Shown here: one piece after another, positions 23,004 through 41,989 of the stretch
Numbering within the stretch: the stretch's first letter is position 1
How the letters are laid out: every line of letters begins with the position of its first letter
NCBI GenBank assembly: GCA_963555995.3
Contig: OY821641.1
Location: 3,168,001-3,232,000 of the forward strand
DNA: 64,000 bases
DNA from: Vicinamibacteria bacterium
GTDB taxonomy: Bacteria; Acidobacteriota; Vicinamibacteria; Marinacidobacterales; Marinacidobacteraceae
Direction of reading: 5' to 3'
Translations under genes and position numbers: made by a program
The notes under the pieces: generated by a model
Databases searched by the model: none
Told to the model about the DNA's origin: nothing
Seen by the model: only the letters and a program-made list of their open reading frames with translations

Positions 23004-24125
23004 TCACCGGTAGCTGGACGGGCTCTCTGCGATCTCGATCAGCTCTCCGAACGCCAGGATCGCGGGGTGGCGACCCCGGCTCGGCGCCAGTTCCCGCAGC
23101 ATCCCGCGATCCCTGAGAACCCGAAGGATGCGCAGGGCCGTGGGTCTCGGGACTCCCGACCTCGCAGCAAGATCCGAGGTCCAAAAAACCGGCTGATCGA
23201 ACATGAAGTCCAGGGACCGCACCGCGTGCTGCGAGCGGGTCGTCTTCGCCACCCAGTCCTTCCTGGCGGCGTAGAGCGCGAGAATCCGTCTCGCTTTCTC
23301 GGTATTGGCGACCGCCTGCTTCTCGAGGGCGGTGAGGAAGAATCGAAGCCACGGGGCCCAATCCCCTCCGCTCTGGGCAGCCAGCAGATTCCGGTAGTAG
23401 TCCTCGCGAAACCGTTCCAGGTACTCGCTCAGGTAGAAGTTCGGCCGTTGCAGCAGGCCCTTCGCCATCAGAAAGAGCGGCACCATCAGGCGCCCCAGCC
23501 GGCCGTTCCCGTCGAGGAACGGATGAATCGCCTCGAACCACACGTGGGCGACCCCGAGCTGGACCAGCGCATCGGGCGTTTCCTCGTGGAGATAGCGCTC
23601 CCAGGCCTCCATGGCGTCAGGGATCTCGGGAACGGGACAGGTGACGAGGGTCGCGGTCTCCTCCTTCGAGCCCGGCGGCCCGATCCAGTTCTGGATGCGG
23701 CGATAGTCACCGGGATCGGCCGTCTGACCCCCAGTTCCCTTCATCAGGACCTCGTGGGCCCGACGGATCACCCGCTGGGAGAGCGGAAGGCTCGCCATCA
23801 ACTCGGTCGCCACCGTGAGTGCGACGCGGTAATTGAGAACTTCCCGAGCGTCCGCCCCGGTCTGCGGGGACTCGTCTCGACCATCACCGTTCGCGCCGAG
23901 CGCCAGGACCTCGCTCAGCGAGGACTGGGTCCCTTCGATGCGGCTGGAGAGCACGGCCTCCTGAACCGACAGCGGCGAGAGCAGGACATCCGGATTCGGG
24001 ACCCCGTGCAGGACACCCTCGTATCCGGCGATGGCGCGCTGAGCGCGGCCGATCAACGGGAGCAGCGTCGGCCAATCGAACGAACGTGGCGGGTAGAAGC
24101 CCGGACGGTAGCGGGGAGGGCTCAT
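23004..24125 (-). CDS. Fic family protein (class II) with C-terminal HTH
   Basis: HPFLDGNGRLGR, SSRIEGT, C-terminal SDLAARSGVPRPTALRILRVL. Confidence 0.92.
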   Translation of the reverse strand: MSPPRYRPGFYPPRSFDWPTLLPLIGRAQRAIAGYEGVLHGVPNPDVLLSPLSVQEAVLSSRIEGTQSSLSEVLALGANGDGRDESPQTGADAREVLNYRVALTVATELMASLPLSQRVIRRAHEVLMKGTGGQTADPGDYRRIQNWIGPPGSKEETATLVTCPVPEIPDAMEAWERYLHEETPDALVQLGVAHVWFEAIHPFLDGNGRLGRLMVPLFLMAKGLLQRPNFYLSEYLERFREDYYRNLLAAQSGGDWAPWLRFFLTALEKQAVANTEKARRILALYAARKDWVAKTTRSQHAVRSLDFMFDQPVFWTSDLAARSGVPRPTALRILRVLRDRGMLRELAPSRGRHPAILAFGELIEIAESPSSYR

Positions 24126-28309: not shown

Positions 28310-29307
28310 TCAGGACTCTTCGGTGTTCCGGAGCCGGTTCAGGAAGTCGTCCACGCTCCCGGCGGTGAAGGCGGCCGCGGCCACCGCCGTCCGCGAGGCC
28401 CGTGCGAGCACCGTTCGGTCCGCAGCGGGCAGATCCGCCGGGAAGGCCGGGGAAACTGCGAAGCCGCGGCGCCGTAACCACTCGCCCGCCATCGCCGCGC
28501 GCTCCTTCGCACGCGCCTCGGCGCGCTGCTCCCGCAGCAACGGGTCGTCGTCCGGATCGGTTCCCTCCCGCCGCCCGAGTTCCCGACCGACCCGGGACGC
28601 CACCGCCACCATCTCCGGCGACGGCGTCCGCTCGTTCAGCACCCGGTGCGCCTCCTCCGCCGTGAGGCTCGGGAACGCCCGGCTCTCCCCGCTCTCCCGG
28701 TACTCCCCATCCTCCAGCAGGTAAATCGTCAACCCCGGCCGCAACCCCCGGGGACGAACTGGCGCATGCGCGTCTGGAACCTCCACCCACAACTCCGGAA
28801 AACCCCAGTCCGCGTACACCAGCAGCTTGTTCCGCCGCACGTCCGTCGTGTCGTCCACCTCCAGCACCACGTCCGGGTGCTCCTGCGGCGCTCCCCATAC
28901 GTACCTCGATCCGATCCGGTCCTGCCGCTGCGGATCCAGGAACACCATCTCGTCCGAGTGCATCACCCGCACCAGCTCCCGGTCCGCGTCGAGCAGGCGC
29001 AACCCCGCCGCACCCCTCGGAGCGCCAGCCTCCGGCTGGCATCGCGCGGGAGCGCGAAACCCGCGCTGATGGCGCTTCTCGACGTGAACCAGGAACCCGC
29101 GTCCGGCCTGTTTCGGGCAGCGTTGCGCCGTTCCCGCTTGGAACCACGCCATAGGGGTCGGTGGCGATGCGTGTTTCGCTCCCCTGCGGGGAGCGATGCC
29201 GGCCGGAGGCCGGCGCTCCGAACCCCAGCCGTCTCCGCCCTTTTCATGCCCGGCGGGGTGCGCACCAGGACCGATCGAGAGGGTTCCGCTGCTGCCCCGT
29301 TCGCCAT
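28310..29307 (-). pseudogene. Uma2-like gene disrupted by a REP doublet
   Basis: The 3' ~700 bp are closely similar to 40991..41989. The start MANGAAAEPSRS survives at 29307. 29019-29219 is a variant REP doublet replacing coding sequence. Confidence 0.75.
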
Positions 29308-29487
29308 CCCCGGAGCCCAGGCCCGGGCGGCCGGCGGTCTGCCGAGCGGCACACCACGCCTTCCCGGGGTGTCGGGTTCCGTCGCGCTTCCAAGGCAGAA
29401 TCCCCACCACGGTCAAGCCCACGGATGAGCCCGCCGCTTCCGCTCCCCGCCGCCCCCGCTCGCGGGTACCCTCCCCACGGGGACCGC

Positions 29488-30636
29488 ATGGACGCCATCT
29501 ACCTCGACTACAACGGGTCCGCCCCGCTGGACCCCCGCGTCGCCGAGGTCATGGTCCGCGCCCTCACCGACGGGCTGGGGAACGCCGCCTCCGCCCACCG
29601 CTTCGGGCTCCGGCAGGCGGCGGCGGCCGACGAGGCCCGCGAGCACGTCGCCGCCATGGTCGGAGGCCGCCCCTCGGGGGTCATCTTCACCTCGGGAGCC
29701 ACCGAGGCGAACAACCTCGCGCTGCGCGGAGCCGTCGAAGGACGGCCGCCCGAACGCCCCCGAATCCTCGTCTCGGCGGTGGAGCACGCCTCCGTCTCCC
29801 GGACGGCGGCATGGCTCGGCGAGTCGGGCCAGGCCGAGGTCGGGACCCTTCCGGTGACCCCCGGCGGTTTCGTGGACCCGGACGAGGTCGGCGCGATGAT
29901 AGATTCCGATGTTCTGTTGGTATCCGTCATGGCCGCCAACAGCGAGACAGGCGTTCTCAACCCGGTGGGCGAGATCGCCGAGCGCGTCCACGCCGCCGGC
30001 GCGCTGTTCCACTGCGACGCCACCCAGTTCGCCGGACGGCTACCGTTCGACATGGAGGAGGCCGGAGCCGACCTGGTGTCCGTCAGCAGTCACAAGATCT
30101 GCGGGCCGACCGGCGCGGGCGCGCTGATCGGCGCCCGGGCCGCCCTCAAGCGGCTTCGTCCGGTGCTCCACGGCGGGGGCCACGAGCGCGGGCTCCGTTC
30201 CGGGTCGCTCAACGTCGCCGGCATCGTCGGGTTCGGGGCCGCCGCCCGGATCGCCACCGAGGAACGGACGGCCGAGCGGCGCCAGGTCGCGGGGCTCCGG
30301 GACGAACTCGTCACCCGCCTGCGGGAGCGCCTCCCCGGCGTCCACGAACTCGGGGACACCGGCCGGAGGCTGCCGAACACCGCCTGCCTCCGGTTCGCGG
30401 GGGCCGACGGCCAGGCGGTCGCCACCCGCATGGACCCGGTCGCGGTCTCCCTGGGCAGCGCGTGCCACTCCGGCTCCATCGAGCCGTCCGCGACGCTGGT
30501 GGCGATGGGGATACCCCGGGACGACGCCTTCGAGGCGGTGCGGTTCAGCGTGGGCCGGTTCACGACCACGCAGGAGATCGAGGTCGCGGTCGAGGCGGCG
30601 GTCACCGCCGTCGAGTTCGTCCGGGAGATGATGTAG
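29488..30636 (+). CDS. sspA: Cysteine desulfurase, SspA/DndA-like
   Basis: IYLDYNGSAP, FTSGATEANN, PLP lysine SSHK, catalytic GSAC; first gene of the operon with DUF4007, ATPase and PAPS reductase. Confidence 0.85.
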   Translation: MDAIYLDYNGSAPLDPRVAEVMVRALTDGLGNAASAHRFGLRQAAAADEAREHVAAMVGGRPSGVIFTSGATEANNLALRGAVEGRPPERPRILVSAVEHASVSRTAAWLGESGQAEVGTLPVTPGGFVDPDEVGAMIDSDVLLVSVMAANSETGVLNPVGEIAERVHAAGALFHCDATQFAGRLPFDMEEAGADLVSVSSHKICGPTGAGALIGARAALKRLRPVLHGGGHERGLRSGSLNVAGIVGFGAAARIATEERTAERRQVAGLRDELVTRLRERLPGVHELGDTGRRLPNTACLRFAGADGQAVATRMDPVAVSLGSACHSGSIEPSATLVAMGIPRDDAFEAVRFSVGRFTTTQEIEVAVEAAVTAVEFVREMM

Positions 30637-30646
30637 GGGAGAACCG

Positions 30647-31576
30647 ATGCGACTGACCGACGCCGCGGAGCGCTCCTTCGCCCGCCACGAGACTTTCCAC
30701 CCGCGCTACGGCTGGTTCCGGAAGGCGTACCGGTCAGTGGCCGAGGATCCGCACGTCTTCGACTATGAGGACGCGCCAGTCCGTATCGGGGTCGGAAAGA
30801 ACATGGTCCGCGCGATCCGGTTCTGGGGGCTTGCCGCCGGCCTGATCACCAACACGTCCGAACACCGCCGCCGGAAGCGTCTGAAACCGACGCCCTTCGG
30901 GGAGCAGCTCTTCGGCGAATCAGGGTGGGATCCGTGGATGGAAGACCCCGGAACCCTCTGGCTGATCCACTGGCGGCTCCTGCGAAAGCATTGCCTACTA
31001 CCGGTCTGGTGGCTCGCCTTCAACGAGTTCCACCCCATCGAGTTCACCGACGACACCCTCGAAGACGTGGTCGTCCACCAGATCGAAGGAACATCCGGTT
31101 GGAAGTCCCCGCACCCCTCATCACTGAAGAAGGACGTGAGCGCGCTGCTCCGCACCTACGCGCCACAGGACCGGAAGAAACGCAGCGGCACTGACGATGC
31201 GCTGGACTGCCCGCTTCGCGAACTCGGCCTGATCCGCCGCGCCGCAAACCCCGGCCGGTACCGCTTCATCCTCGGCGAGAAGCCACATCTGCCGTCCGCG
31301 GTCGCTACGGCCGCCGCGCTGGAGTTCGCGGGCTTGACCGGCGGCGCAGGAAACACAATCGCGGTCTCGCGCTTGGTCCACGAACCGGGCTCGCCAGGCA
31401 AGGCATTCAAGCTCAACGAGGCAGAATTGCTCGCGGCCCTCGAACCCACAGTTCAGCGACAAAGCATTATCGGGCTGACCTCCAGTACCGGCGCGCACGT
31501 CCTCTCCTGGTCCGGAGCCCCGGACGATCTCGCGGGCACTGTCCTCGCCGACTACTACGGCTCGGAGGGTCCCTGA
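30647..31576 (+). CDS. sspB: DUF4007 protein, SspB-like
   Basis: FARHETFHPRYGWFRKA, IGVGKNMVRAIRFW, DPWMEDPGTLWLIHW, CPLRELGLI. Confidence 0.9.
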   Translation: MRLTDAAERSFARHETFHPRYGWFRKAYRSVAEDPHVFDYEDAPVRIGVGKNMVRAIRFWGLAAGLITNTSEHRRRKRLKPTPFGEQLFGESGWDPWMEDPGTLWLIHWRLLRKHCLLPVWWLAFNEFHPIEFTDDTLEDVVVHQIEGTSGWKSPHPSSLKKDVSALLRTYAPQDRKKRSGTDDALDCPLRELGLIRRAANPGRYRFILGEKPHLPSAVATAAALEFAGLTGGAGNTIAVSRLVHEPGSPGKAFKLNEAELLAALEPTVQRQSIIGLTSSTGAHVLSWSGAPDDLAGTVLADYYGSEGP

Positions 31577-34500
31577 TGCCTACGCTCGCCGATTCCGTCT
31601 CGGTACGGACCCGGTTCGCCCGCTCGGCGAACCTGGAACGCGACTCGGGCCGGTCGGAACCCTTCGACGGCTACATCGTCACCGGCAGGGCGCTCGACAT
31701 GATCGAGCGGCTGACGAGCGCGGCGCTCGCGGGGAGGGCCGGCGGAGCGTGGTCCGTAACCGGCCCTCACGGTTCGGGCAAGTCCTCTCTTGCCCTTCTC
31801 CTTGATGCCGCGTTCGGCCCCGGCAAGCGCCTCCGAAGTACCGCTCTGGACCTGATCGCCGACGCATCCCCGGCGGCGGCAGAAGCCATTCAGGACGCGC
31901 ACCGACGCCACAGCACACGTCGGAAAGGCTTCCAGCGCGGCCTAGTCACCGCGCAGCGGGAACCGATCGCCCGGACGTTGCTGCAAGGACTCCACGCCGC
32001 GATCCTCGGGACCTGGGGCCGGATCCCTTCCGCGCGCGAGTTCCCGGCTTCCCGACTGTTGAAAGAGGCGCTACGGAACGCGGAGGCACCGAACATTTGG
32101 CAGAACGGAGCATTTGCCTCAACCATCGTCGAAATTGCCAAGTCTCTCGCCGACCGCGCTCCTCTGCTGCTGATCGTGGACGAATTCGGCAAGAGCCTGG
32201 AGGCGATCAGGGACGGTGGCGACGCCGACCCGTACGTCCTGCAGCAACTCGCCGAGACCGGACAGGGCGGAGGACTTCCGATCTTCGTCATCACCCTCCA
32301 ACATCTGTCCTTCGACGACTACTTGATCGGGGCGGAAGCATCGAAGCGCCGCGAATGGGCAAAGGTGCAGGGGCGGTTCGAAGACGTGGCCTATGTGGAG
32401 TCCGCCCGTCAGTCTCGGAGGCTCATTGGATCAGTTTTCGACATCCGGAGCGACGCGCTACGGGTACGCATCCGAAGCACCGCCCAGAGTTACTCGGAAG
32501 CGCTGAGCCGACTTGGGATAGCGAATGGAACCGATACGGAGGTCCTCGCCTCCTGTTATCCCTTGCATCCGCTTGTCGCTTTGGTGCTGCCCGAACTGTG
32601 CAGCCGGTACGGCCAACACGAACGCACTCTTTTCTCCTTCCTCGCTGGGGCGGACCCGGCAAGCGCGGCGTCGTTCCTCGCGGCGGGGGACATCGAGGAG
32701 TCGAACTCGCTGCCGCTGGTCGGCCTGGATTTGGTGTACGACTACTTCGTCGGAGGCGCTGCGGCTTCGAATGGCGCCCTTTCGCATTCGAGTCGCTGGA
32801 CCAAGATCGCCACCCGGTTGCGAGACATCCACGGGCTGTCCCCGGCACAGACCCGTCTCGCCAAGTCCATCGCCCTCGTCAACCTTGTCTCGACCAGCGG
32901 GACGATCCGGGCGTCGCGCGAGATTCTGACCTTGGCAGCGTCGAAGCCGGAGCAGGACCTTCGGGCGCTGGAAGCACGGGGCATCATCACCTACCGCGCG
33001 TTCGCGGACGAGTACCGGATCTGGCAGGGCACGGACACTGACCTTCGCCGTCTCTTGGATGCGGCGTACGAGCGGCTCCATCACCGATCTCTGTTCGACA
33101 TCCTTTCCGAAATGGAGGTGCCTCCCCCGGTGGTTGCGGCACGCCACAGCGCCCAGAATCATGTGCTGCGCGTCTTCAAGCGACGGTACTTCGAGGCAGG
33201 AGAACCAGTCGAGCCGCTTGCCCCCTCTTCGCCATTCGACGGTGAGGTCCTGCTCAACGTCGGCCCCTTGGTTCCGACCTTGCCGGTACCCGGTCCGGGC
33301 GTTAAGCCCACGATCGCGGCAACGCCAAGTAGCACGACAGACTTGGACCGCGCCGCACGCGAAGTGGCAGCGGTCTTGGCAGTACTCAAAGATCCGGTCG
33401 TCGCCGACGATCCGGTAGCTCGCGCGGAACTCGCCGAACGACTCGCCCAAGCCCGTGCAGCCTTCGACCACGCCTTCGGCATCGCGTTTCGGGCGGATGC
33501 TTGCCGCTGGACGATGTGCCTCAAGCGATCGACCGCAAGGGAGCTGCACCCAGGCCGGGGGAGCGCTCCACTGTCGGAGGCCGCCGACCTCGCCTACGAG
33601 TACACCCCGGTGATCTCCAACGAAATGCTCAATCGGACGGAACTCACCTCTCAGGGTGCGAAGGCCCGGCGGATAGTGCTCCAGGCGATGATCGAGCACG
33701 GTTCGGAGCCGGATCTTGGCTTCAAGGGATACGGGCCGGAGGTGGCGATGTATCGGGCGGTCCTGGAGAGGACCGGCCTTCACGGGTTCGCACCGGACGC
33801 GGAAGAGCGAGGCTTCCGCGAACCCTCCGAGAAATCGCTCGGGCGGGCGTGGCATTCCGTTCAGCGGGGGTTCGAGCGAGCCCAGACCCAGCGCATCAAC
33901 CTCCGCAACCTCTATAGCGACCTTCTGTCGCCGCCAATCGGAATGAAGGCCGGGGTTATTCCCGTTTTCCTGACCGTCGCGCTTCTAGTGAGGTGTGACG
34001 ACATCGCGATCTATGAACACGGCACATTCAAGCCACTCTTGACGGCTGACCTGTCGGAACGGATGGTTCGGAACCCAGCCCACTTCGAGATCAAGTGCTT
34101 CGCGAACACCGAGGGGGCGCGGGGGCAGGTCGTCTCCGCGCTCGCAGAGTACCTACACATTCGAGGGAGCTCTCGCGGGTACAGGGTCGCCAACGTAGTC
34201 GCCGTGGTCGGGCATTTGGTCTCGAAGATCCGGCGGCTGGATCACTTCACTCTGAGGACTGGCGATCTCAGCAAGGCGGCGTCGGCAGTACGGGACGTCG
34301 TGGTCGCTGCTGTGGAGCCAGACGAACTGCTGTTCGACTCCCTCCCGACCGCACTCGGCTTTCCTCCCGTCCCGGCGAACGCTCCGAGCTACGAAGCCGC
34401 GATCGGTTACGCGCAGACGGTGACCGAGGCACTTAGGGAACTGAGCGCCCGGCCCGATAGACTGCTTGCGGAACTGCTCCAGCTGTTGCTCGATACCAGC

Positions 34501-35031
34501 GCCGAGACATCCCGGGTAGCGATTTCCCGTCAGGCGGCGGCGCTGGAAGGGCATGTTCTCGACCCCGAATTGAGGGCCTTCGTGCTGACGCTAGCGAGCG
34601 ACGCCTCCGAGACCGACTCGGACTGGATGCGCGCCATTGCGACAGTCGTCGCCAAGAAGGCACCATCTGAGTGGAGTAAAGAGGACATGGTGTGGTTCGA
34701 CCGCGAACTCTCTGCCCGCGTGGCGGCCTTCCACCGGCTCATCGCTCTCCACGCCGACAACCAGACCAGTGGCGCGCCCGACGCGTTGCGCGTGACACTA
34801 ACCCGTGCCGATGGCAGCGAGCACAACCGGTTGGTCGCTATTGACGCGAAGGATCGCCCCGAGGCGGAACGCGCCCTTGACGCCGCCCTTGTCGAGCTAG
34901 CTGAGATCACTGGGTCTCCCCACCATGCCCACAAGGCCCTGCTCGCTCTGCTGGGTGAACGCTTGCTGCCCGATCGGCCCGAGAGTGCAGATCAGTCCGC
35001 ACATCTGCTGCGGAGGGCAGTCAATGTCTGA
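31576..35031 (+). CDS. sspC: Large P-loop ATPase, SspC-like
   Basis: RFARSANLERD, Walker A GPHGSGKS, Walker B IVDEFGK, EWAKVQGRF, CYPLHP, QHERTLFSFL. Confidence 0.88.
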   Translation: MPTLADSVSVRTRFARSANLERDSGRSEPFDGYIVTGRALDMIERLTSAALAGRAGGAWSVTGPHGSGKSSLALLLDAAFGPGKRLRSTALDLIADASPAAAEAIQDAHRRHSTRRKGFQRGLVTAQREPIARTLLQGLHAAILGTWGRIPSAREFPASRLLKEALRNAEAPNIWQNGAFASTIVEIAKSLADRAPLLLIVDEFGKSLEAIRDGGDADPYVLQQLAETGQGGGLPIFVITLQHLSFDDYLIGAEASKRREWAKVQGRFEDVAYVESARQSRRLIGSVFDIRSDALRVRIRSTAQSYSEALSRLGIANGTDTEVLASCYPLHPLVALVLPELCSRYGQHERTLFSFLAGADPASAASFLAAGDIEESNSLPLVGLDLVYDYFVGGAAASNGALSHSSRWTKIATRLRDIHGLSPAQTRLAKSIALVNLVSTSGTIRASREILTLAASKPEQDLRALEARGIITYRAFADEYRIWQGTDTDLRRLLDAAYERLHHRSLFDILSEMEVPPPVVAARHSAQNHVLRVFKRRYFEAGEPVEPLAPSSPFDGEVLLNVGPLVPTLPVPGPGVKPTIAATPSSTTDLDRAAREVAAVLAVLKDPVVADDPVARAELAERLAQARAAFDHAFGIAFRADACRWTMCLKRSTARELHPGRGSAPLSEAADLAYEYTPVISNEMLNRTELTSQGAKARRIVLQAMIEHGSEPDLGFKGYGPEVAMYRAVLERTGLHGFAPDAEERGFREPSEKSLGRAWHSVQRGFERAQTQRINLRNLYSDLLSPPIGMKAGVIPVFLTVALLVRCDDIAIYEHGTFKPLLTADLSERMVRNPAHFEIKCFANTEGARGQVVSALAEYLHIRGSSRGYRVANVVAVVGHLVSKIRRLDHFTLRTGDLSKAASAVRDVVVAAVEPDELLFDSLPTALGFPPVPANAPSYEAAIGYAQTVTEALRELSARPDRLLAELLQLLLDTSAETSRVAISRQAAALEGHVLDPELRAFVLTLASDASETDSDWMRAIATVVAKKAPSEWSKEDMVWFDRELSARVAAFHRLIALHADNQTSGAPDALRVTLTRADGSEHNRLVAIDAKDRPEAERALDAALVELAEITGSPHHAHKALLALLGERLLPDRPESADQSAHLLRRAVNV

Positions 35032-35872
35032 GGACACCCGCCATATCTGTGGCATATCCGGCGGCAAGGATTCCAGCGCACTCGCGGTCTATCTGCGCGG
35101 CAAAGTGCAGGGCATGGAGTACTTCTTCTGTGATACCGGCGCCGAACTCCCGGAGACCTACGAATATCTCACCCGGCTTGAAGTCCTGCTCGGCCAGCCC
35201 ATAGTCCGCTTGAACGCCGAGCGAGGCTTTGACCACTGGTTCGAGGTGTTCCGTGGCGCGCTCCCGTCGCCCCAAATGCGCTGGTGCACCAAGAATATGA
35301 AGATCAAGCCGATCGAGGCGTGGATCGGGGACGAGCCGGCGGTGTCCTACGTGGCGATCCGGGCCGACGAGGCGAACCGGAAGGGCTACATCTCCACGAA
35401 GCCCAACATCCAAAGCCGATTCCCGTTCGTCGAGGACGGCGTCGACCGCGCCGGGGTAATGCGGATTCTCGAGGACGCTGGGATCGGCCTCCCGCACTAC
35501 TACGAGTGGCGTACCCGGTCAGGCTGCTATTTCTGCTTCTATCAGCGCAAGGCGGAGTGGGTCGGCCTCGCGGACCGCCACCCGGACCTCTTCGAACGCG
35601 CCGTCGCGATTGAGCAGAAGGTGCTGCAAGACGCCGGGGTTGACGGCGACGCCGACTTCGGCGATCAGGCCATGCGGGGTCGGAACTACACCTGGTCGGG
35701 CGGCGAAAGCCTTCCCCAGCTCCTTGCCCGGCGGAACGAGATCATCGCCAAGCATCGGGATTCGCTGGCTCGCTCTCGTCGTCCCCAACAGAATGTTCCT
35801 CTCTTGGAGGCACTAGCTGACGCTCTCGACGAAGAAGACGATACCGCGCCGTGTGCGGTGTGCGCTCTATAG
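35024..35872 (+). CDS. sspD: PAPS-reductase-family protein, SspD-like
   Basis: PP-loop SGGKDS, DTGAELPETY, RWCT, RSGCYFCFYQ, C-terminal CAVC. Confidence 0.9.
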   Translation: MSEDTRHICGISGGKDSSALAVYLRGKVQGMEYFFCDTGAELPETYEYLTRLEVLLGQPIVRLNAERGFDHWFEVFRGALPSPQMRWCTKNMKIKPIEAWIGDEPAVSYVAIRADEANRKGYISTKPNIQSRFPFVEDGVDRAGVMRILEDAGIGLPHYYEWRTRSGCYFCFYQRKAEWVGLADRHPDLFERAVAIEQKVLQDAGVDGDADFGDQAMRGRNYTWSGGESLPQLLARRNEIIAKHRDSLARSRRPQQNVPLLEALADALDEEDDTAPCAVCAL

Positions 35873-35963
35873 CAAGAAATGTCCGTTCACCTCTTGGTTT
35901 ACTCGTCACTCCGTGCGTTCGGGACCCTTAACCTGCTCAGGAAATCCTTTAAAGGAGATCGCT

Positions 35964-37043
35964 TTGCGCATATCGACCAGTGAGTGGAGTGTTCGCATGC
36001 TGACGGACTTCCAGCACCGGATGAACACCGATGCCGAGTACCAGCGAGGCAAGGTCTGGTCCGAACCACAGCGGGTGCTCCTCATTGACTCCATTCTTCG
36101 TGGCTTCGCTATCCCAACTATCTTCCTTCGGAAACATGACGGTGGCGACGAATACCTGTTCGACGTCGTTGACGGAAAACAACGTCTCACGGCGATATGG
36201 CGCTTTCTCTCAAACGACATCCGTCTCCTACGCAATGCTGAAGAATACCCCGGCCTTGGCAATCTGGGTGGGCAATGCTGGTCCGATCTCTCCAGAAAGG
36301 CGCAGGATCACCTGCAATTCGCGAATATAACTGTCTCAAAAATCGAAAATGCCAGCGACGATCAGATACGGGAGCTCTTTCTTCGCCTACAAAAGGGGGA
36401 ACCACTGAACGCCGCGGAGAAACGTAATGCCATGTCGGGTCCAGTGCGCGATTTCGTCGCAAAGAAGCTCGCCAAGCACCCTCTCTGGCCAACGACCGGG
36501 ATTAGTCCGAAGCGATTCGGAACAGATGAGCATTCCGCCATATTGCTAGCGTTGATGTACCACCGAGGGCCAACTGCCATTAAGGGCGCCGATCTCCAAA
36601 AGCTCTACGAAGACGACGACTTCGATCCCCGAGGTACAGCGGCACTCCAGTCCATAGAACTTCTCGATGATCTCTACGCTGTTTCTAGGAAGGATCCGCG
36701 AACTATTCGGACTCGGTGGGGTCTCGTCGATCTCTCACTTGTTCTTATGCGTGCTCGCAAGGACGGTATAAGGATCGACGCGAGCCAAGTCATGAATTTC
36801 TATAAGGAGTTCGAGGAAGAGCGAAAAAAGGCGAGTGTCGCCTGGACAGATTTTCAAACTCGCATGACTGAAATGACTATAGGAGAGGACACGCCAAGCG
36901 ATGCGTGGGGTCAACACAACATTCCAGAAGAGATCCTTAACTATCACCGGGCTTTCGCACGCGAGGGTGGTAGCGCCCAGAACATCGACTTCCGATACAA
37001 AATCATGTACAAGAAGTTTCTGGATCATCTTGGACGTCCATAG
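35964..37043 (+). CDS. DUF262 (ParB-like/GmrSD N-terminal) protein without an evident HNH domain
   Basis: TTG start after AAGGAG; YQRGKVW, LIDSILRGFAIP, VVDGKQRL, FLRLQKGEPLNAAE. Confidence 0.85.
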   Translation: MRISTSEWSVRMLTDFQHRMNTDAEYQRGKVWSEPQRVLLIDSILRGFAIPTIFLRKHDGGDEYLFDVVDGKQRLTAIWRFLSNDIRLLRNAEEYPGLGNLGGQCWSDLSRKAQDHLQFANITVSKIENASDDQIRELFLRLQKGEPLNAAEKRNAMSGPVRDFVAKKLAKHPLWPTTGISPKRFGTDEHSAILLALMYHRGPTAIKGADLQKLYEDDDFDPRGTAALQSIELLDDLYAVSRKDPRTIRTRWGLVDLSLVLMRARKDGIRIDASQVMNFYKEFEEERKKASVAWTDFQTRMTEMTIGEDTPSDAWGQHNIPEEILNYHRAFAREGGSAQNIDFRYKIMYKKFLDHLGRP

Positions 37044-37072
37044 CTAGGTCGCCACTGTACAACGATTCGATC

Positions 37073-37810
37073 GTGTTGGATCTCCTTCTAGGCCGCCGGG
37101 TCACGGGACTCCTCACAGTCGCACTCACTCTATGTGGTTTTCTTCTTCCGGATGAAATCCGAAAGTGGGCGATTGGAAGCGTCGGACTGGCTATTCTTGT
37201 GCAGACAGTTATCGGTGGCATTCGCGAACGGAGTGGAGTCGGGCGTCTTGGACAGCACTATGGTTTCGTCCACAACAAAATGTTGGAGTTGTTGTCTCAC
37301 CTAGGCGAGCTCACAGGCAACGATTATTCGATCTGGCGTATGGACCTCTATTTGGCCAGGAGACACTTGGGACTCTCATCGGCTAAACCGTTCGTCATAC
37401 GCAATGTGCTACATCCTGTAATACCGCTTGCCCTAAAGCACTTGCGAGTTTCGCCACAAACCATTCCATCCCACCATCCACTCTTTGGCAATTGCTTTCG
37501 AAACAAAGTGCAGCGCCTCTGGTGGAACGAGGACCTAGCTTCGTTTCCGGACAGTGAAGCACACAGCAAGAACAGTTGGTACGACCTGTCGCGTAGCGAG
37601 AATGAAGCTCTTCGGGTGGAGTTCGGAGCTATGAGTCTAAACCCAATCGCAAAGGGTGGCAGCGAACGCTGCCTTGGCGTTCTCGTGGTTCATACAATCG
37701 GTGATTCTGAGGCGGTTACGACGGTATTGGGAGCGTTACTTCAGGAAAAGGCGGACCGACGCCTACGGCAAATCTGTATTGACATCTACGACGGACTTCA
37801 GGGTGGATAA
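37073..37810 (+). CDS. Hypothetical protein with two N-terminal TM helices and a possible GAF-like domain
   Basis: Hydrophobic LLTVALTLCGFLL and WAIGSVGLAILVQTVIGGI; LFGNCF...MSLNPI...CLGVLVVH followed by a terminal helix. Confidence 0.65.
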   Translation: MLDLLLGRRVTGLLTVALTLCGFLLPDEIRKWAIGSVGLAILVQTVIGGIRERSGVGRLGQHYGFVHNKMLELLSHLGELTGNDYSIWRMDLYLARRHLGLSSAKPFVIRNVLHPVIPLALKHLRVSPQTIPSHHPLFGNCFRNKVQRLWWNEDLASFPDSEAHSKNSWYDLSRSENEALRVEFGAMSLNPIAKGGSERCLGVLVVHTIGDSEAVTTVLGALLQEKADRRLRQICIDIYDGLQGG

Positions 37811-37838: not shown

Positions 37839-39269
37839 ATGAACGTAATGGAACGCATTAGACCGGGAACCGTCTACTTTGGGGATTGTTTGGAGGTGAT
37901 GACGTCTTGGATTCAGAACCAAGTAGATTTGATCTACTTGGATCCACCATTCAATTCCAAAAAGAACTACAACATTCTGTTTGGTACGGAAACGAACGGA
38001 AAGTCAAGCCAGTTCCTGGCATTCGAAGATACTTGGCAGTGGGACAGGCCCGCGCAGCGTCGTTTGGATCAATTCCGCGGAGCTGTTGCACACCCCGCGA
38101 GCGCGGCGGTTTTGGGCCTGCACTCCGTACTCGGTGATTCGGGGATGATGTCGTATTTGTCCTATATGGCAGAACGCCTGTATCACGCACATCGTGTATT
38201 GAAAGCTACCGGGAGCATCTATCTGCATTGCGACCCCAATGCGTCTCACTACCTCAAGGTCATTATGGATCAGATTTGCGGTGCCGAGAATTTTCAGAAT
38301 GAATTCATTTGGTACTATGGCGGTGGGGGTGCGTCCAAGAAGCGGTGGGCGCGTAAGCATGATGTCCTACTGTTCTATACGAAATCATCCGAGTGGACGT
38401 TTAACGCAGACGCGGTGAGGTCAAAGCACAAGTGGGATCGCGGACAGAAACGCGCGGATGGATCTGAGAGGAGTTTGGACAAGGGGAAGCTTCCCGATGA
38501 CGTGTTCCAGCACCATAGCCTTATGCCCTGGTCGAAAGAGCGACTTGGGTATCCAACTCAGAAGCCCTTGGCTCTCCTAGAGCGAATCGTTGCCGCGAGC
38601 AGTAAGGAGGGGGATCTGATTCTCGATCCGTTTTGCGGATGTGGAACGGCCGTGGTAGCCGCTCACCAACTCGGGAGGCGGTGGGCTGGCATTGATATAT
38701 CACCGTTCGCTGTGGAACACGTAATCAAAGTGAGGCTCAACAAATTGCGAGTGAGAGCAAAGACAGATGGCATTCCATTTGACATGGCATCGGCCAGAGC
38801 ACTTGCAAAGGCAGACCCGTTCAGATTCGAAGCGTGGGCAGTCAATCAGATTCCCGGTATGGCACCCAACACGAAACAGACCGGTGATGAAGGCATAGAC
38901 GGACGAGGCACACTGTTGAGTGAGGCGGATGAAACAGACCATAGAATCGTCTTGGCACAAGTAAAGGGCGGTAGCGGAGGACCCTCTGCGGACGCGGTTC
39001 GCGCGTTTTGCCAAGTGGTCAGCAACCCAAAGAACGCCGCGGTGGCAGGCATTTTCATTACATTGGAACGTCGGTGGTCGAGCAAAATGCTTGCGGAATT
39101 TGAACGGTTCGGCCAGTTTCGACTCAAGGGCGGGGCCGAGTATTTCCCGCGCCTTCAGTTCTGGTCCATAGAGGACCACTTTGATGGAAAACGGCCAGTG
39201 CTTCCGTCGCTAACGGACCCTGTTACCGGTAGAGAAATGAGCCACCCGCTGTGGATTGATCGACGCTAG
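37839..39269 (+). CDS. Beta-class N6/N4 DNA methyltransferase fused to an Mrr-like nuclease domain
   Basis: YLDPPF, YPTQKP, LDPFCGCGT; C-terminal FEAWAV...GDEGIDG...AQVKGG. Confidence 0.88.
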   Translation: MNVMERIRPGTVYFGDCLEVMTSWIQNQVDLIYLDPPFNSKKNYNILFGTETNGKSSQFLAFEDTWQWDRPAQRRLDQFRGAVAHPASAAVLGLHSVLGDSGMMSYLSYMAERLYHAHRVLKATGSIYLHCDPNASHYLKVIMDQICGAENFQNEFIWYYGGGGASKKRWARKHDVLLFYTKSSEWTFNADAVRSKHKWDRGQKRADGSERSLDKGKLPDDVFQHHSLMPWSKERLGYPTQKPLALLERIVAASSKEGDLILDPFCGCGTAVVAAHQLGRRWAGIDISPFAVEHVIKVRLNKLRVRAKTDGIPFDMASARALAKADPFRFEAWAVNQIPGMAPNTKQTGDEGIDGRGTLLSEADETDHRIVLAQVKGGSGGPSADAVRAFCQVVSNPKNAAVAGIFITLERRWSSKMLAEFERFGQFRLKGGAEYFPRLQFWSIEDHFDGKRPVLPSLTDPVTGREMSHPLWIDRR

Positions 39270-39485: not shown

Positions 39486-40607
39486 TTATCGGACCCAGCC
39501 CCGCGCGAACAGCGCGGACAGTTTCAAGCCTTTGTCGGATGTGCCGCCGTTGAGCACCTTCGCGATACGGTCCGCCCGAGTCGCACCGGAGCTTTCCCGC
39601 CGCAGGGGCCGCCCCTTGTCGCCGCCGAGGTAATCCACGATCTCCGGGTGATCGGAACAAATCACGGCCTGGGATAGGGACTCGCCGCAGAGATCCGACA
39701 ACTCCTGCAGCCACGGCTGGACTTCCCGCAACGCCACGAAGTTCATCGGTGTGTCCAAGAAGAGCGTGTGCCGCTGCTCCACCGCGAGACAGATCAAGGC
39801 ATACAGAACGACCAGCGTCCGCTGTCCGTCCGACACCTCCCCAAAGCGCAGCGCGTACTCCTCGTCCGCCTCGTGGAACACCATCATGAGCGCACGGGTA
39901 TCCATCCCGGCCCTCTGCAACCGAATGCCGCGGAAGCCGTGGAGGACATTCTGCATGGTCTTCGTGTATTCGGCGATGAGATCGGGACGCTCCTGCGCCA
40001 GGTTTCGATACCATCCGACGAAGTTTCTTCCGTCTCTTTCCAGAAGGTCGTCCTCGGTCGCGGACTCCGAAGCGAAGACTCCGGGCTGCAGGCCGCACAC
40101 GATGATGCTTTGCACGAAATCCTGGAAGCGGGACAGGTTCCTGTTGTCCCGGCCGGAAGTGACGCGCGCCAGCGAGGACACCTCCCAATCGGCGGGAAAC
40201 GAGTGTCCCTTGGTGAGATCGTCGCCGTATAGCTGCACCTGCCCGTCCACGAACTCGAACAGCGTGTCTCCGTTCATGGTGAGGTGTTCCCGCTGGATTC
40301 CGGCGATCCGCTTCTCCCGGGAATGCTTCACTTCGAGGCGATAGGAGTACGCGCTCCCTTCAAGCTCGACGTCCAACTCGAAGGTCTGGACATCTCGCGA
40401 CTGCCAGCGGGTGCGGGTTGACGGTGGAAACGCGGCCCTCCCCTTCACGGCGGTCCGGCCGCCCAGCAACTCGCGCAGCGCGAAGACGATGTCCAGGACG
40501 CTGGATTTCCCCGCTCCGTTCATGCCGAGCAGCAGGGACAACGCGTCGAGGTGCAGTTCGAACTTGACGAAACACCGGTAGTTGTCCGCGTAGAGCCGGG
40601 TGATCAT
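39486..40607 (-). CDS. ABC-type (AAA_21/AbiEii-associated) ATPase
   Basis: MITRLYADNYRCF, Walker A GMNGAGKS, signature VSDGQ, atypical Walker B LFLDTPMN. Confidence 0.85.
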   Translation of the reverse strand: MITRLYADNYRCFVKFELHLDALSLLLGMNGAGKSSVLDIVFALRELLGGRTAVKGRAAFPPSTRTRWQSRDVQTFELDVELEGSAYSYRLEVKHSREKRIAGIQREHLTMNGDTLFEFVDGQVQLYGDDLTKGHSFPADWEVSSLARVTSGRDNRNLSRFQDFVQSIIVCGLQPGVFASESATEDDLLERDGRNFVGWYRNLAQERPDLIAEYTKTMQNVLHGFRGIRLQRAGMDTRALMMVFHEADEEYALRFGEVSDGQRTLVVLYALICLAVEQRHTLFLDTPMNFVALREVQPWLQELSDLCGESLSQAVICSDHPEIVDYLGGDKGRPLRRESSGATRADRIAKVLNGGTSDKGLKLSALFARGWVR

Positions 40608-40990: not shown

Positions 40991-41989
40991 CTAGCCGGTG
41001 GCGCCGTGGAGGCGGTGGAGGAAATCGGGCACGCTGTCCGCGCTCATGGCGGCGGCCGCGATCGCGCCCGGTGACACCCGCTCGAGCATCGTTCGGTCGG
41101 CGGGGGGGAGGTCCGCCGGAAAGGCGGGGGAGACGGTGAGGCCGCGGAGACGCAGGACCTCGCGCGCGGTCTCCGCCCGCCCCTCGGCGCGCTGCTCCCG
41201 CAGGAGCGGATCGTCCTCCGGGCCGGTTCCCCCCCGGAGCCCGAGAGCTCGGCCCACGCGCGATGCCAGCGCCGTCGTCTCGGGTGACGGCGTCCGCTCG
41301 TTCAGAACTCCGTGCGCCTCCTCCGCCGTGAGGCCCGGAAACGCCTGGCTCTGCCCGCTTTCCCGATACGCCCCTGCCTCCAGCAGGTAGATCGTCAACC
41401 CCGGCCGCCGGCCCCGGGGACGGCTCGGCGAATACACGTCCGGAACCTCCACCCACAACTCCGGAAAACCCCAGTCCGCGTACACCAGCAGTTTGTTCCG
41501 TCGCACGTCCGTCGTGTCGTCCACTTCCAGCACTACGTCCGGGTGCTCTTGCGGCGCTCCCCAGACGTAGCTCGATCCGATCCGGTCCTGCCGCTGCGGA
41601 TCCAGGAACACCATCTCGTCCGGGTGCATCGCCCGCACCTGCGCCCGATCCGCGTCCAACAGATCCAATCCTGCTTCGCCCCCCATCATGATCGGAGCGC
41701 CCCGTACCATCGCGACCCGCTCCACGAACTTGCGGAACATGGTCAGCGGGTGCTCATGCGGAGCCTTCGCCGGCTCCGCCACCCGCCAGGCCCGCGCCAC
41801 TTCGGCATCGAACAGTTCGACCCGCGCGTCCTCGTCGAGCGCCCGATACTCGGCGACGGTCATGCGGCACGACTCGCAGCCGATGAACTCCAGCGCCGAC
41901 GCCGGCAGCCAGCGCCGCGACCGCGTGGGCTCCGCCGCCGGGCGGGTCGCTGCCGCCGTTTCCGCCGCTACCCCCGCCCCGTTCGCCAT
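40991..41989 (-). CDS. Uma2/DUF820-like protein
   Basis: HEHP, HPDEMVF, PDVVLEVDDTTDVRRNKL..Y..WGFPELWV, EDDPLLREQRAEGRAE. Confidence 0.78.
   Translation of the reverse strand: MANGAGVAAETAAATRPAAEPTRSRRWLPASALEFIGCESCRMTVAEYRALDEDARVELFDAEVARAWRVAEPAKAPHEHPLTMFRKFVERVAMVRGAPIMMGGEAGLDLLDADRAQVRAMHPDEMVFLDPQRQDRIGSSYVWGAPQEHPDVVLEVDDTTDVRRNKLLVYADWGFPELWVEVPDVYSPSRPRGRRPGLTIYLLEAGAYRESGQSQAFPGLTAEEAHGVLNERTPSPETTALASRVGRALGLRGGTGPEDDPLLREQRAEGRAETAREVLRLRGLTVSPAFPADLPPADRTMLERVSPGAIAAAAMSADSVPDFLHRLHGATG

Follow-up and report, generated by a model that had tools for sequence, protein, structure and literature searches.

Beside Ssp operons, a DUF262 gene without a nuclease domain and a gene for a predicted membrane protein with two helices and a GAF fold form a rare and apparently undescribed module

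We report that an sspABCD operon for phosphorothioate (PT) modification of DNA, which lies in a 64,000-nucleotide window of a Vicinamibacteria genome (contig OY821641.1, positions 3,168,001 to 3,232,000), is followed by two genes that form a real, rare and apparently undescribed Ssp-linked module. The first encodes a DUF262 protein lacking a nuclease domain, and the second a protein with two predicted N-terminal transmembrane (TM) helices and a predicted GAF fold (TM-GAF). We suggest that the pair may be a sensor-effector defence arm, in which a PT-reading nucleoside triphosphate (NTP) switch would trigger a membrane toxin, and we put the probability of this reading at about 0.5. A sequence-only reading of the window had placed six open reading frames (ORFs) here, all of which were confirmed at its coordinates (Table 1). 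The four tightly coupled ssp genes that it described are matched by PADLOC and Pfam profiles and meet at junctions of +10 nt (sspA/sspB), -1 nt (sspB/sspC) and -8 nt (sspC/sspD); catalytic motifs are kept across them, and the SspABCD modification module is present and intact. The DUF262 gene begins 91 nt 3' of the end of sspD and is followed, after a spacing of 29 nt, by the TM-GAF gene. Because GC content at third codon positions (GC3) drops from 0.76-0.93 in the ssp genes to 0.59 in the DUF262 gene and 0.54 in the TM-GAF gene, composition suggests a separate origin for the pair.

The two genes almost certainly make up a functional unit. In what follows, G000 is the genome of the window, L-numbers are compared loci and P-numbers are matches to a TM-GAF profile. 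The comparison drew on 78 DUF262 loci from GTDB genomes (21 close, at 48-60%, and 57 more distant) and 80 from metagenomes (7 close and 73 more distant); the 28 close loci constitute the clade set, and 24 of them hold both genes. The TM-GAF gene stands directly 3' of DUF262 in 20 of the 21 close GTDB loci and is intact in 19, a regularity that disposes of the earlier caution that it might be unrelated cargo. In L033 it is split by insertion sequence (IS) elements and DUF262 is broken as well; in L035 it is gone, and DUF262 is frameshifted and accompanied by an IS. Four of the 7 close metagenome loci have the TM-GAF gene (L095 and L096 being apparently one locus), and the other three have a broken DUF262 and no TM-GAF gene, the alignments of L100 and L101 being the same as that of L035. 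No TM-GAF match was found in the 57 + 73 more distant DUF262 loci. Of 22 pairs called mechanically, 19 have an intergenic gap of -8 to +11 nt, and the pairwise distances of the two proteins correlate (rho 0.82 over 20 loci, among which kin are not independent). In six pairs the ratio of nonsynonymous to synonymous substitution rates (dN/dS) is 0.09-0.15 for DUF262 and 0.08-0.29 for TM-GAF; both genes are under purifying selection. The closest relative, G006 (= L016), belongs to the same genus as the window genome. A single one of the 75 profile matches, P0159, is a 579-aa ORF that fuses DUF262 (54% identity over 327 aa) to TM-GAF; this fusion may be an indel artefact, since it is a singleton without the first 30 residues.

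The linkage to Ssp that the sequence-only reading had proposed is upheld in 22 of the 24 loci that hold both genes, where ssp genes lie within 10 kb of the pair; in the remaining two (L021 and L097) a contig end cuts the locus short, and the L021 genome has sspABCD on another contig. Over the same distance, ssp genes accompany 0 of the 57 other GTDB DUF262 loci (of which 37 span 15 kb or more) and 2 of the 73 other metagenome loci (L110 and L125). The link is kept across at least 5 phyla and SspD identities of 45-93%, despite varied gene order and orientation, and in many cases the pair stands away from the start of the ssp operon or opposite to it. Distances between DUF262 proteins do not track those between SspD proteins (rho 0.06). 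From these sequence comparisons we conclude that the pair has joined different ssp operons anew, and we consider it quite likely that its link to Ssp is under selection. The sharp contrast between pair loci and other GTDB DUF262 loci is difficult to reconcile with a PT-independent two-gene defence in the style of PD-T4-2 or Dazbog, which would sense phage DNA or nucleotide pools and gather in ssp islands. The same can be said of L035, where sspD was not found in the genome and the pair has decayed to a frameshifted DUF262 without its TM gene. We hold such a system to be unlikely, while noting that the pair moves independently of SspD and has a GC3 of its own, that ssp genes are frequent in these hosts, and that there are known DUF262 systems which have neither a nuclease nor PT genes (PMC12065111).

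The DUF262 protein has the marks of a complete gene product. Its ORF starts with TTG, preceded by AAGGAG, and it carries the motifs YQRxxxW (residues 26-32), DGKQR (70-74) and FxxxQ (139-143). Pfam finds GmrSD_N (PF03235) alone, over residues 23-156, and no DUF1524 or HNH match, in agreement with the sequence-only reading. Three DUF262 motifs have been described, the third as FxxxN (PMC12065111); all three are present in the window protein, with FxxxQ rather than FxxxN as the third. A homologue search restricted to proteins of 197-629 aa gave 921 matches, of which the best 120 (the query itself and 119 others) were analysed. These 119 homologues measure 347-408 aa, share 52-66% identity, cover 95-100% of the query and have PF03235 as their only Pfam match, with no HNH among them. 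Residues Q27, R28, W32, D70, G71, Q73, R74, F139 and Q143 are invariant in their alignment, position 26 is Tyr in 102 and Phe in 17, and C-terminal residues are conserved. In the trees, the TM-linked DUF262 proteins form one clade (support 100/99), which groups with an HNH-less clade linked to SIR2 genes and with proteins of ~400 aa (group support 100/99), the branching order inside this group being unresolved. The ~400-aa proteins, the nearest relatives outside the clade, mostly end in a classical HNH, a motif visible there alone, and for this reason we believe that the HNH was probably lost long ago and that the short form is now fixed. The earlier caution that the gene might be a truncated DUF262-HNH would therefore be apt in deep time and fails for any recent truncation, the 359-aa protein being, by its alignment, a full-length family. 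A truncated pseudogene followed by unrelated cargo, an idea to which the C-terminal HNH of the ~400-aa relatives lends some colour, was rejected as extremely improbable in view of the full-length homologues, the conserved C-terminal residues, the purifying selection on both genes and the constant position of the TM gene.

The AlphaFold model of the DUF262 protein (predicted local distance difference test score, pLDDT, 84.0; predicted template modelling score, pTM, 0.59) combines a ParB-like N-half with a C-half made up wholly of helices. It aligns modestly to BrxU (Z 8.5, root-mean-square deviation (rmsd) 11.1, 287 aligned residues, chain 1-426) and, again with modest scores, to PadC, SspE (Z 7.8) and DndI (Z 5.2), matching the N-terminal and middle parts of BrxU, SspE and DndI. 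Foldseek returned nothing at E <= 0.001 with this model (best BrxU, 1.9e-3), and an ESM Atlas search with the C-half returned unnamed clusters alone. The best PADLOC matches were NsnA (residues 7-196) and PD-T4-2_A (3.7e-10), with no PADLOC match to SspE.

Pfam, NCBIfam and PADLOC gave no match for the TM-GAF gene. Hydropathy peaks at residues 11-29 and 32-50 of its product, and each of the 20 aligned members has a pair of hydrophobic stretches at its N-terminus, with 2-8 Lys/Arg in the ~20 residues that come next. From this we infer a TM hairpin that leaves the C-terminal domain on the cytoplasmic side. That soluble domain is predicted with good confidence to adopt a GAF fold: the AlphaFold model (pLDDT 85.8) has one over residues 57-245, its best structural match is the GAF domain 2qyb (Z 15.3, rmsd 2.9, 144 aligned residues), and the top structural rows are almost all GAF (Foldseek E 1e-4). 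The two helices and the GAF-like pattern seen by the sequence-only reading are thus borne out; that reading had also named two findings that would speak against it, closest DUF262 homologues that bear an HNH and stand outside Ssp loci, and a TM protein without a GAF fold that never neighbours DUF262 or ssp genes, and we found neither. The exact start codon is uncertain because no clear ribosome-binding site precedes the GTG. A homologue search with the single sequence found nothing; the TM-GAF profile gave 4 matches in a word search and 75 among 1.84 billion representatives in a full HMMER search, matched none of 400 further genomes from the phylum, and yielded no confirmed relative on viral contigs (one scan) and no match on plasmids. 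The ESM Atlas holds unnamed clusters of 238-262 aa for the protein, one with GAF in 14% of its members. The best look-alikes among viral models (BFVD) are phage membrane or GAF proteins of 205-260 aa, 9 of them at E <= 0.001, class III holins being weaker (E 0.03-0.15). Distant proteins of 254-300 aa with two N-terminal hydrophobic stretches (P0196, P0199, P0200 and P0201) match the profile weakly, at E 1e-7 to 1e-3.

We propose that SspABCD would put PT marks on host DNA, and that a DUF262 dimer would bind DNA via its helical domain and read PT via its Tyr-Gln pocket; as in SspE and DndI, this reading would set the NTP state of the protein. Phage infection, whether through accumulating unmarked DNA or through the loss of marked host DNA, would flip this state; the switched sensor, or a nucleotide made by it, would then engage the GAF domain on the cytoplasmic side, upon which the membrane protein would arrest or kill the cell (abortive infection). 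Y26/Q27 of the window protein correspond to the PT-sensing residues Y30/Q31 of SspE, which form a pocket that modulates NTPase activity (PMC9646914), and to Y25 of DndI, part of such a pocket (PMC11662687). We would give direct reading of PT by this DUF262 protein slightly less than an even chance, and rather favour the view that the TM-GAF partner is a defence effector. A related group of HNH-less DUF262 genes has a SIR2-family gene as its partner. L110 and L125 hold a 345-aa HNH-less DUF262 gene and then a SIR2-family gene, beside ssp, and a DUF262-SIR2 pair stands directly after sspBCD on a Hymenobacter plasmid and, in Sinorhizobium americanum, flanks sspABCD-sspFGH, again on a plasmid. The SIR2 gene has PADLOC ThsA and Dsr matches, and in defence systems SIR2 domains serve as effectors that degrade NAD+. 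With SIR2 as its counterpart in the related group, the TM-GAF gene occupies a position taken elsewhere by an effector-type gene. Among more distant DUF262 genes without a nuclease, the partners are RelA/SpoT-like, HEPN-like, SIR2-like or NsnB genes, and two clades of the tree are labelled Dazbog-like and PD-T4-2-like. Six matches, with open frames of 312-456 aa, came from SIR2-type searches covering 401 + 401 genomes; they are assigned to the longer group by their length. Only tentatively would we go on to a general class of plug-in abortive-infection arms, in which an HNH-less DUF262 protein would read the PT state and fire a swappable partner, a membrane GAF protein of holin-like or toxin-like kind here and SIR2 elsewhere.

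The pair could also be regulatory: the DUF262 protein would be DndB-like, and the TM-GAF protein would sense a ligand and sequester or tune the DUF262 protein, so that PT density is adjusted and the cell is not killed. GAF is a classic sensor fold, DndB-like gene pairs fill the slot after sspD in several relatives, and DndB has the same layout of ParB plus helical C-domain (PMC12065111). We nevertheless rate a regulator pair as a minority prospect. The window DUF262 protein has no Pfam DndB match, the corresponding slot of the related group holds an effector-type enzyme, SIR2, and the pair is often set apart from the start of the ssp operon or opposite to it. Moreover, the nearest outside relatives are DUF262-HNH nucleases, so that the partner gene seems to stand in for a nuclease.

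A number of observations weigh against a sensor-effector defence arm, or against parts of it. In these hosts sspD is common (17 of 40 relatives) and the DUF262 gene of the pair occurs in 1 of the 17 sspD-bearing relatives, which makes the pair a minor accessory. The slot after sspD in relatives is filled by DndB-like pairs, PbeA/C, HNH genes, SspFG or a helicase-MORC-PLD triad, and an island hotspot could for that reason explain part of the ssp link. Helicase-MORC(-PLD) or PbeA/C modules also occur in 18 of the 28 clade loci (helicase + MORC in 11, PbeA/C in 7) and could be the real restriction arm. Since the Tyr-Gln motif is found in DUF262 proteins without an ssp neighbour as well, it is not diagnostic of PT reading. 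The best structural matches of the TM-GAF protein are signalling GAFs, and GAF domains are mostly sensors. The sisterhood of the SIR2 and TM-GAF groups is unsettled (85 by the Shimodaira-Hasegawa-like approximate likelihood ratio test, SH-aLRT, in a quick tree, and open in a careful one), and many loci are metagenome-assembled genomes from seemingly similar hosts and are not independent. In G000 itself, which is 93% complete, no SspF/G, PbeA/C, helicase-MORC-PLD or DndB-like genes were found, the absence of SspF and SspG having been tested by tblastn with a working positive control. The SspE profile gave weak partial matches to GmrSD-like genes alone, one of them ~30 kb downstream, and no SspE partner was found in that genome.

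By the features examined, the pair is neither SspE, Menshen, DndB nor a CBASS effector. It resembles SspE, DndI, BrxU and GmrSD in placing an Ssp writer beside a DUF262 NTPase with Tyr-Gln-Arg and DGxQR motifs, and differs from SspE in that its DUF262 protein lacks DUF1524/HNH, has 359 aa against 771 residues in the SspE chain 7drs, and has a separate membrane partner gene instead of a fused nuclease. With Menshen NsnA, PD-T4-2 and Dazbog it shares a ParB-DUF262 plus helical domain without DUF1524; unlike Menshen, it has a TM-GAF gene directly downstream and no NsnB ABC-ATPase or NsnC, and it differs from all three in being ssp-linked, with a DUF262 clade of its own and a two-TM GAF partner. 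DndB is likewise a nuclease-less ParB-family protein beside PT genes, whereas the window DUF262 protein has a coupled membrane partner and no PF14072 or PADLOC DndB match, which the DndB-like genes of relatives do have. The analogy drawn by the sequence-only reading with the cyclic oligonucleotide-based antiphage signalling system (CBASS) and the pyrimidine cyclase system for antiphage resistance (Pycsar) is weak because no nucleotide cyclase or CD-NTase was found in the window operon or in the conserved families of neighbouring genes that were annotated across 21 loci; better analogues would be DUF262 systems of two genes, and toxins or holins of TM+GAF type.

Among these, T4 holin T and phage TM+GAF proteins share with the TM-GAF protein a membrane anchor, a GAF domain and a length of 200-260 aa (6pxe_T, Z 10.6). 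The GAF of T is periplasmic according to its PDB title and that of the window protein putatively cytoplasmic, the TM-GAF gene lies in a chromosomal ssp context and not in a phage lysis cassette, hhalign against the single T sequence gave a probability of 0.4%, and there is no Pfam holin match. Conserved cysteines were considered as a sign of homology to T; hhalign was negative, C235 varies in the wider alignment, and the disulfide idea was abandoned. The toxFtsL-D9 toxin of Gelidibacter mesophilus, a membrane-anchored helix plus GAF, is toxic in E. coli and blocks division (PMC10440598); it is of similar size (281 aa), is likened here by description only, and has as its partner a Panacea antitoxin where the pair has DUF262. 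As that antitoxin neutralises toxFtsL-D9 (PMC10440598), one might picture a guard wiring, in which DUF262 restrains a TM-GAF protein that is toxic by default, for as long as there is PT-DNA, and the toxin is freed once the sensor is lost. Tight coupling and co-divergence of the genes, and the breakage of both in L033, would agree with it. We judge this improbable in the face of L036, which has an N-terminally cut, frameshifted DUF262 gene beside an intact TM gene, a single case that an assembly error or an unexpressed gene could explain.

The interest of a sensor-effector pair lies in what Ssp operons seem to lack. Of 2,678 sspBCD loci, Wang et al. (2021) found that 83.9% had neither sspE nor sspFGH, and they considered that sspBCD might have other partners (PMC8092258), for which the pair is a concrete, clonable two-gene candidate. 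The DUF262-type PT readers SspE and DndI control a nuclease (PMC9646914, PMC11662687); if our proposal is true, the coupling of a PT-linked sensor with a membrane protein would be a new output type, connecting an epigenetic mark of the DNA backbone to membrane damage, DUF262 would be a portable sensor with exchangeable effector genes, and part of the many "orphan" sspBCD loci would gain an effector. The reach of this is limited by the small size of the family (75 profile matches) and by hosts that are mostly uncultured. No description of a DUF262 + TM-GAF pair was found in the literature searched, supplements and subscription papers lying outside its scope; keyword passages of PMC10853773, PMC12914056, PMC8092258, PMC12065111, PMC4619093, PMC11381338 and PMC12839542 held no match, and no paper was found with DUF262 and GAF both as whole words.

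Table 1. Genes of the operon and other features mentioned in the text (positions without a prefix refer to the window)
Feature	Position	Strand	Evidence or remark
sspA, cysteine desulfurase, 382 aa	29488..30636	+	PADLOC SspA 1.9e-121; Pfam Aminotran_5; SSHK and GSACHSG motifs
sspB, DUF4007, 309 aa	30647..31576	+	PADLOC SspB 7.1e-101; PF13182 4e-83
sspC, P-loop ATPase, 1151 aa	31576..35031	+	PADLOC SspC 1.4e-304; Walker A and B motifs
sspD, PAPS-reductase family, 282 aa	35024..35872	+	PADLOC SspD 5.9e-107; PF01507
Nuclease-less DUF262, 359 aa, predicted sensor	35964..37043	+	PF03235 alone; NsnA profile 1.3e-27
Two-TM + GAF-fold protein, 245 aa, predicted membrane effector	37073..37810	+	Hydropathy; AlphaFold; GAF Z 15.3
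HNH-less DUF262 + SIR2 pair	L110:8435-10325; L217:10001-11903; L219:10001-11879; also L125		Beside ssp
MORC/GHKL-like gene, ~810 aa	L020:11835-14252; L110:10682-13183; L219:11876-14344		
Nucleoside 2-deoxyribosyltransferase-like gene + small gene	L110:7366-8368		Between sspD and the DUF262-SIR2 pair
Nuclease-less DUF262 clade coupled to RelA/SpoT-domain genes	L042:10948-11895; also L073, L079 and related loci		
SF2 helicase + MORC/GHKL ATPase + PLD-like triad	L017:11801-16257 (example)		Recurs beside ssp
Two tandem DUF262 genes (GmrSD-like)	G000:C1:3235853-3238307		~30 kb downstream
DUF262 and DUF1524 matches in separate frames	G000:C1:2918949-2922067		
N6/N4 DNA methylase with C-terminal Mrr-like domain	37839-39269	+	28 nt after the TM gene
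Island flanks: Fic-family gene, two Uma2 nuclease genes, one AAA_21-type ATPase gene	23004-24125; 28310-29422; 40991-41989; 39489-40601	-	

Some further features of these loci deserve mention. The methylase-Mrr gene that follows the pair in the window shares its low GC3 and has paralogs in G000 at 46% and 36%; as a third member of the unit it was rejected, being beside the pair in 0 of 28 loci. The MORC/GHKL-like gene is convergent to the pair, near ssp, in L020 (TM-GAF) and in L110, L125 and L219 (SIR2). Beyond L017, the helicase-MORC-PLD triad occurs in L018, L019, L024, L026-L031, L034 and L216, with weak or partial PADLOC matches, and PbeA/PbeC-like genes stand beside Ssp instead of Dnd genes in L022, L023, L025, L032, L036, L095, L098, L205 and L213. 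Among relatives, DndB-like (PF14072) genes, single or tandem, follow sspD or sspA in L204, L206 and L209-L214. The DUF262-RelA/SpoT loci gave no strong PADLOC system match. The two DUF262-SIR2 cases on plasmids of cultured strains are the most tractable test case.

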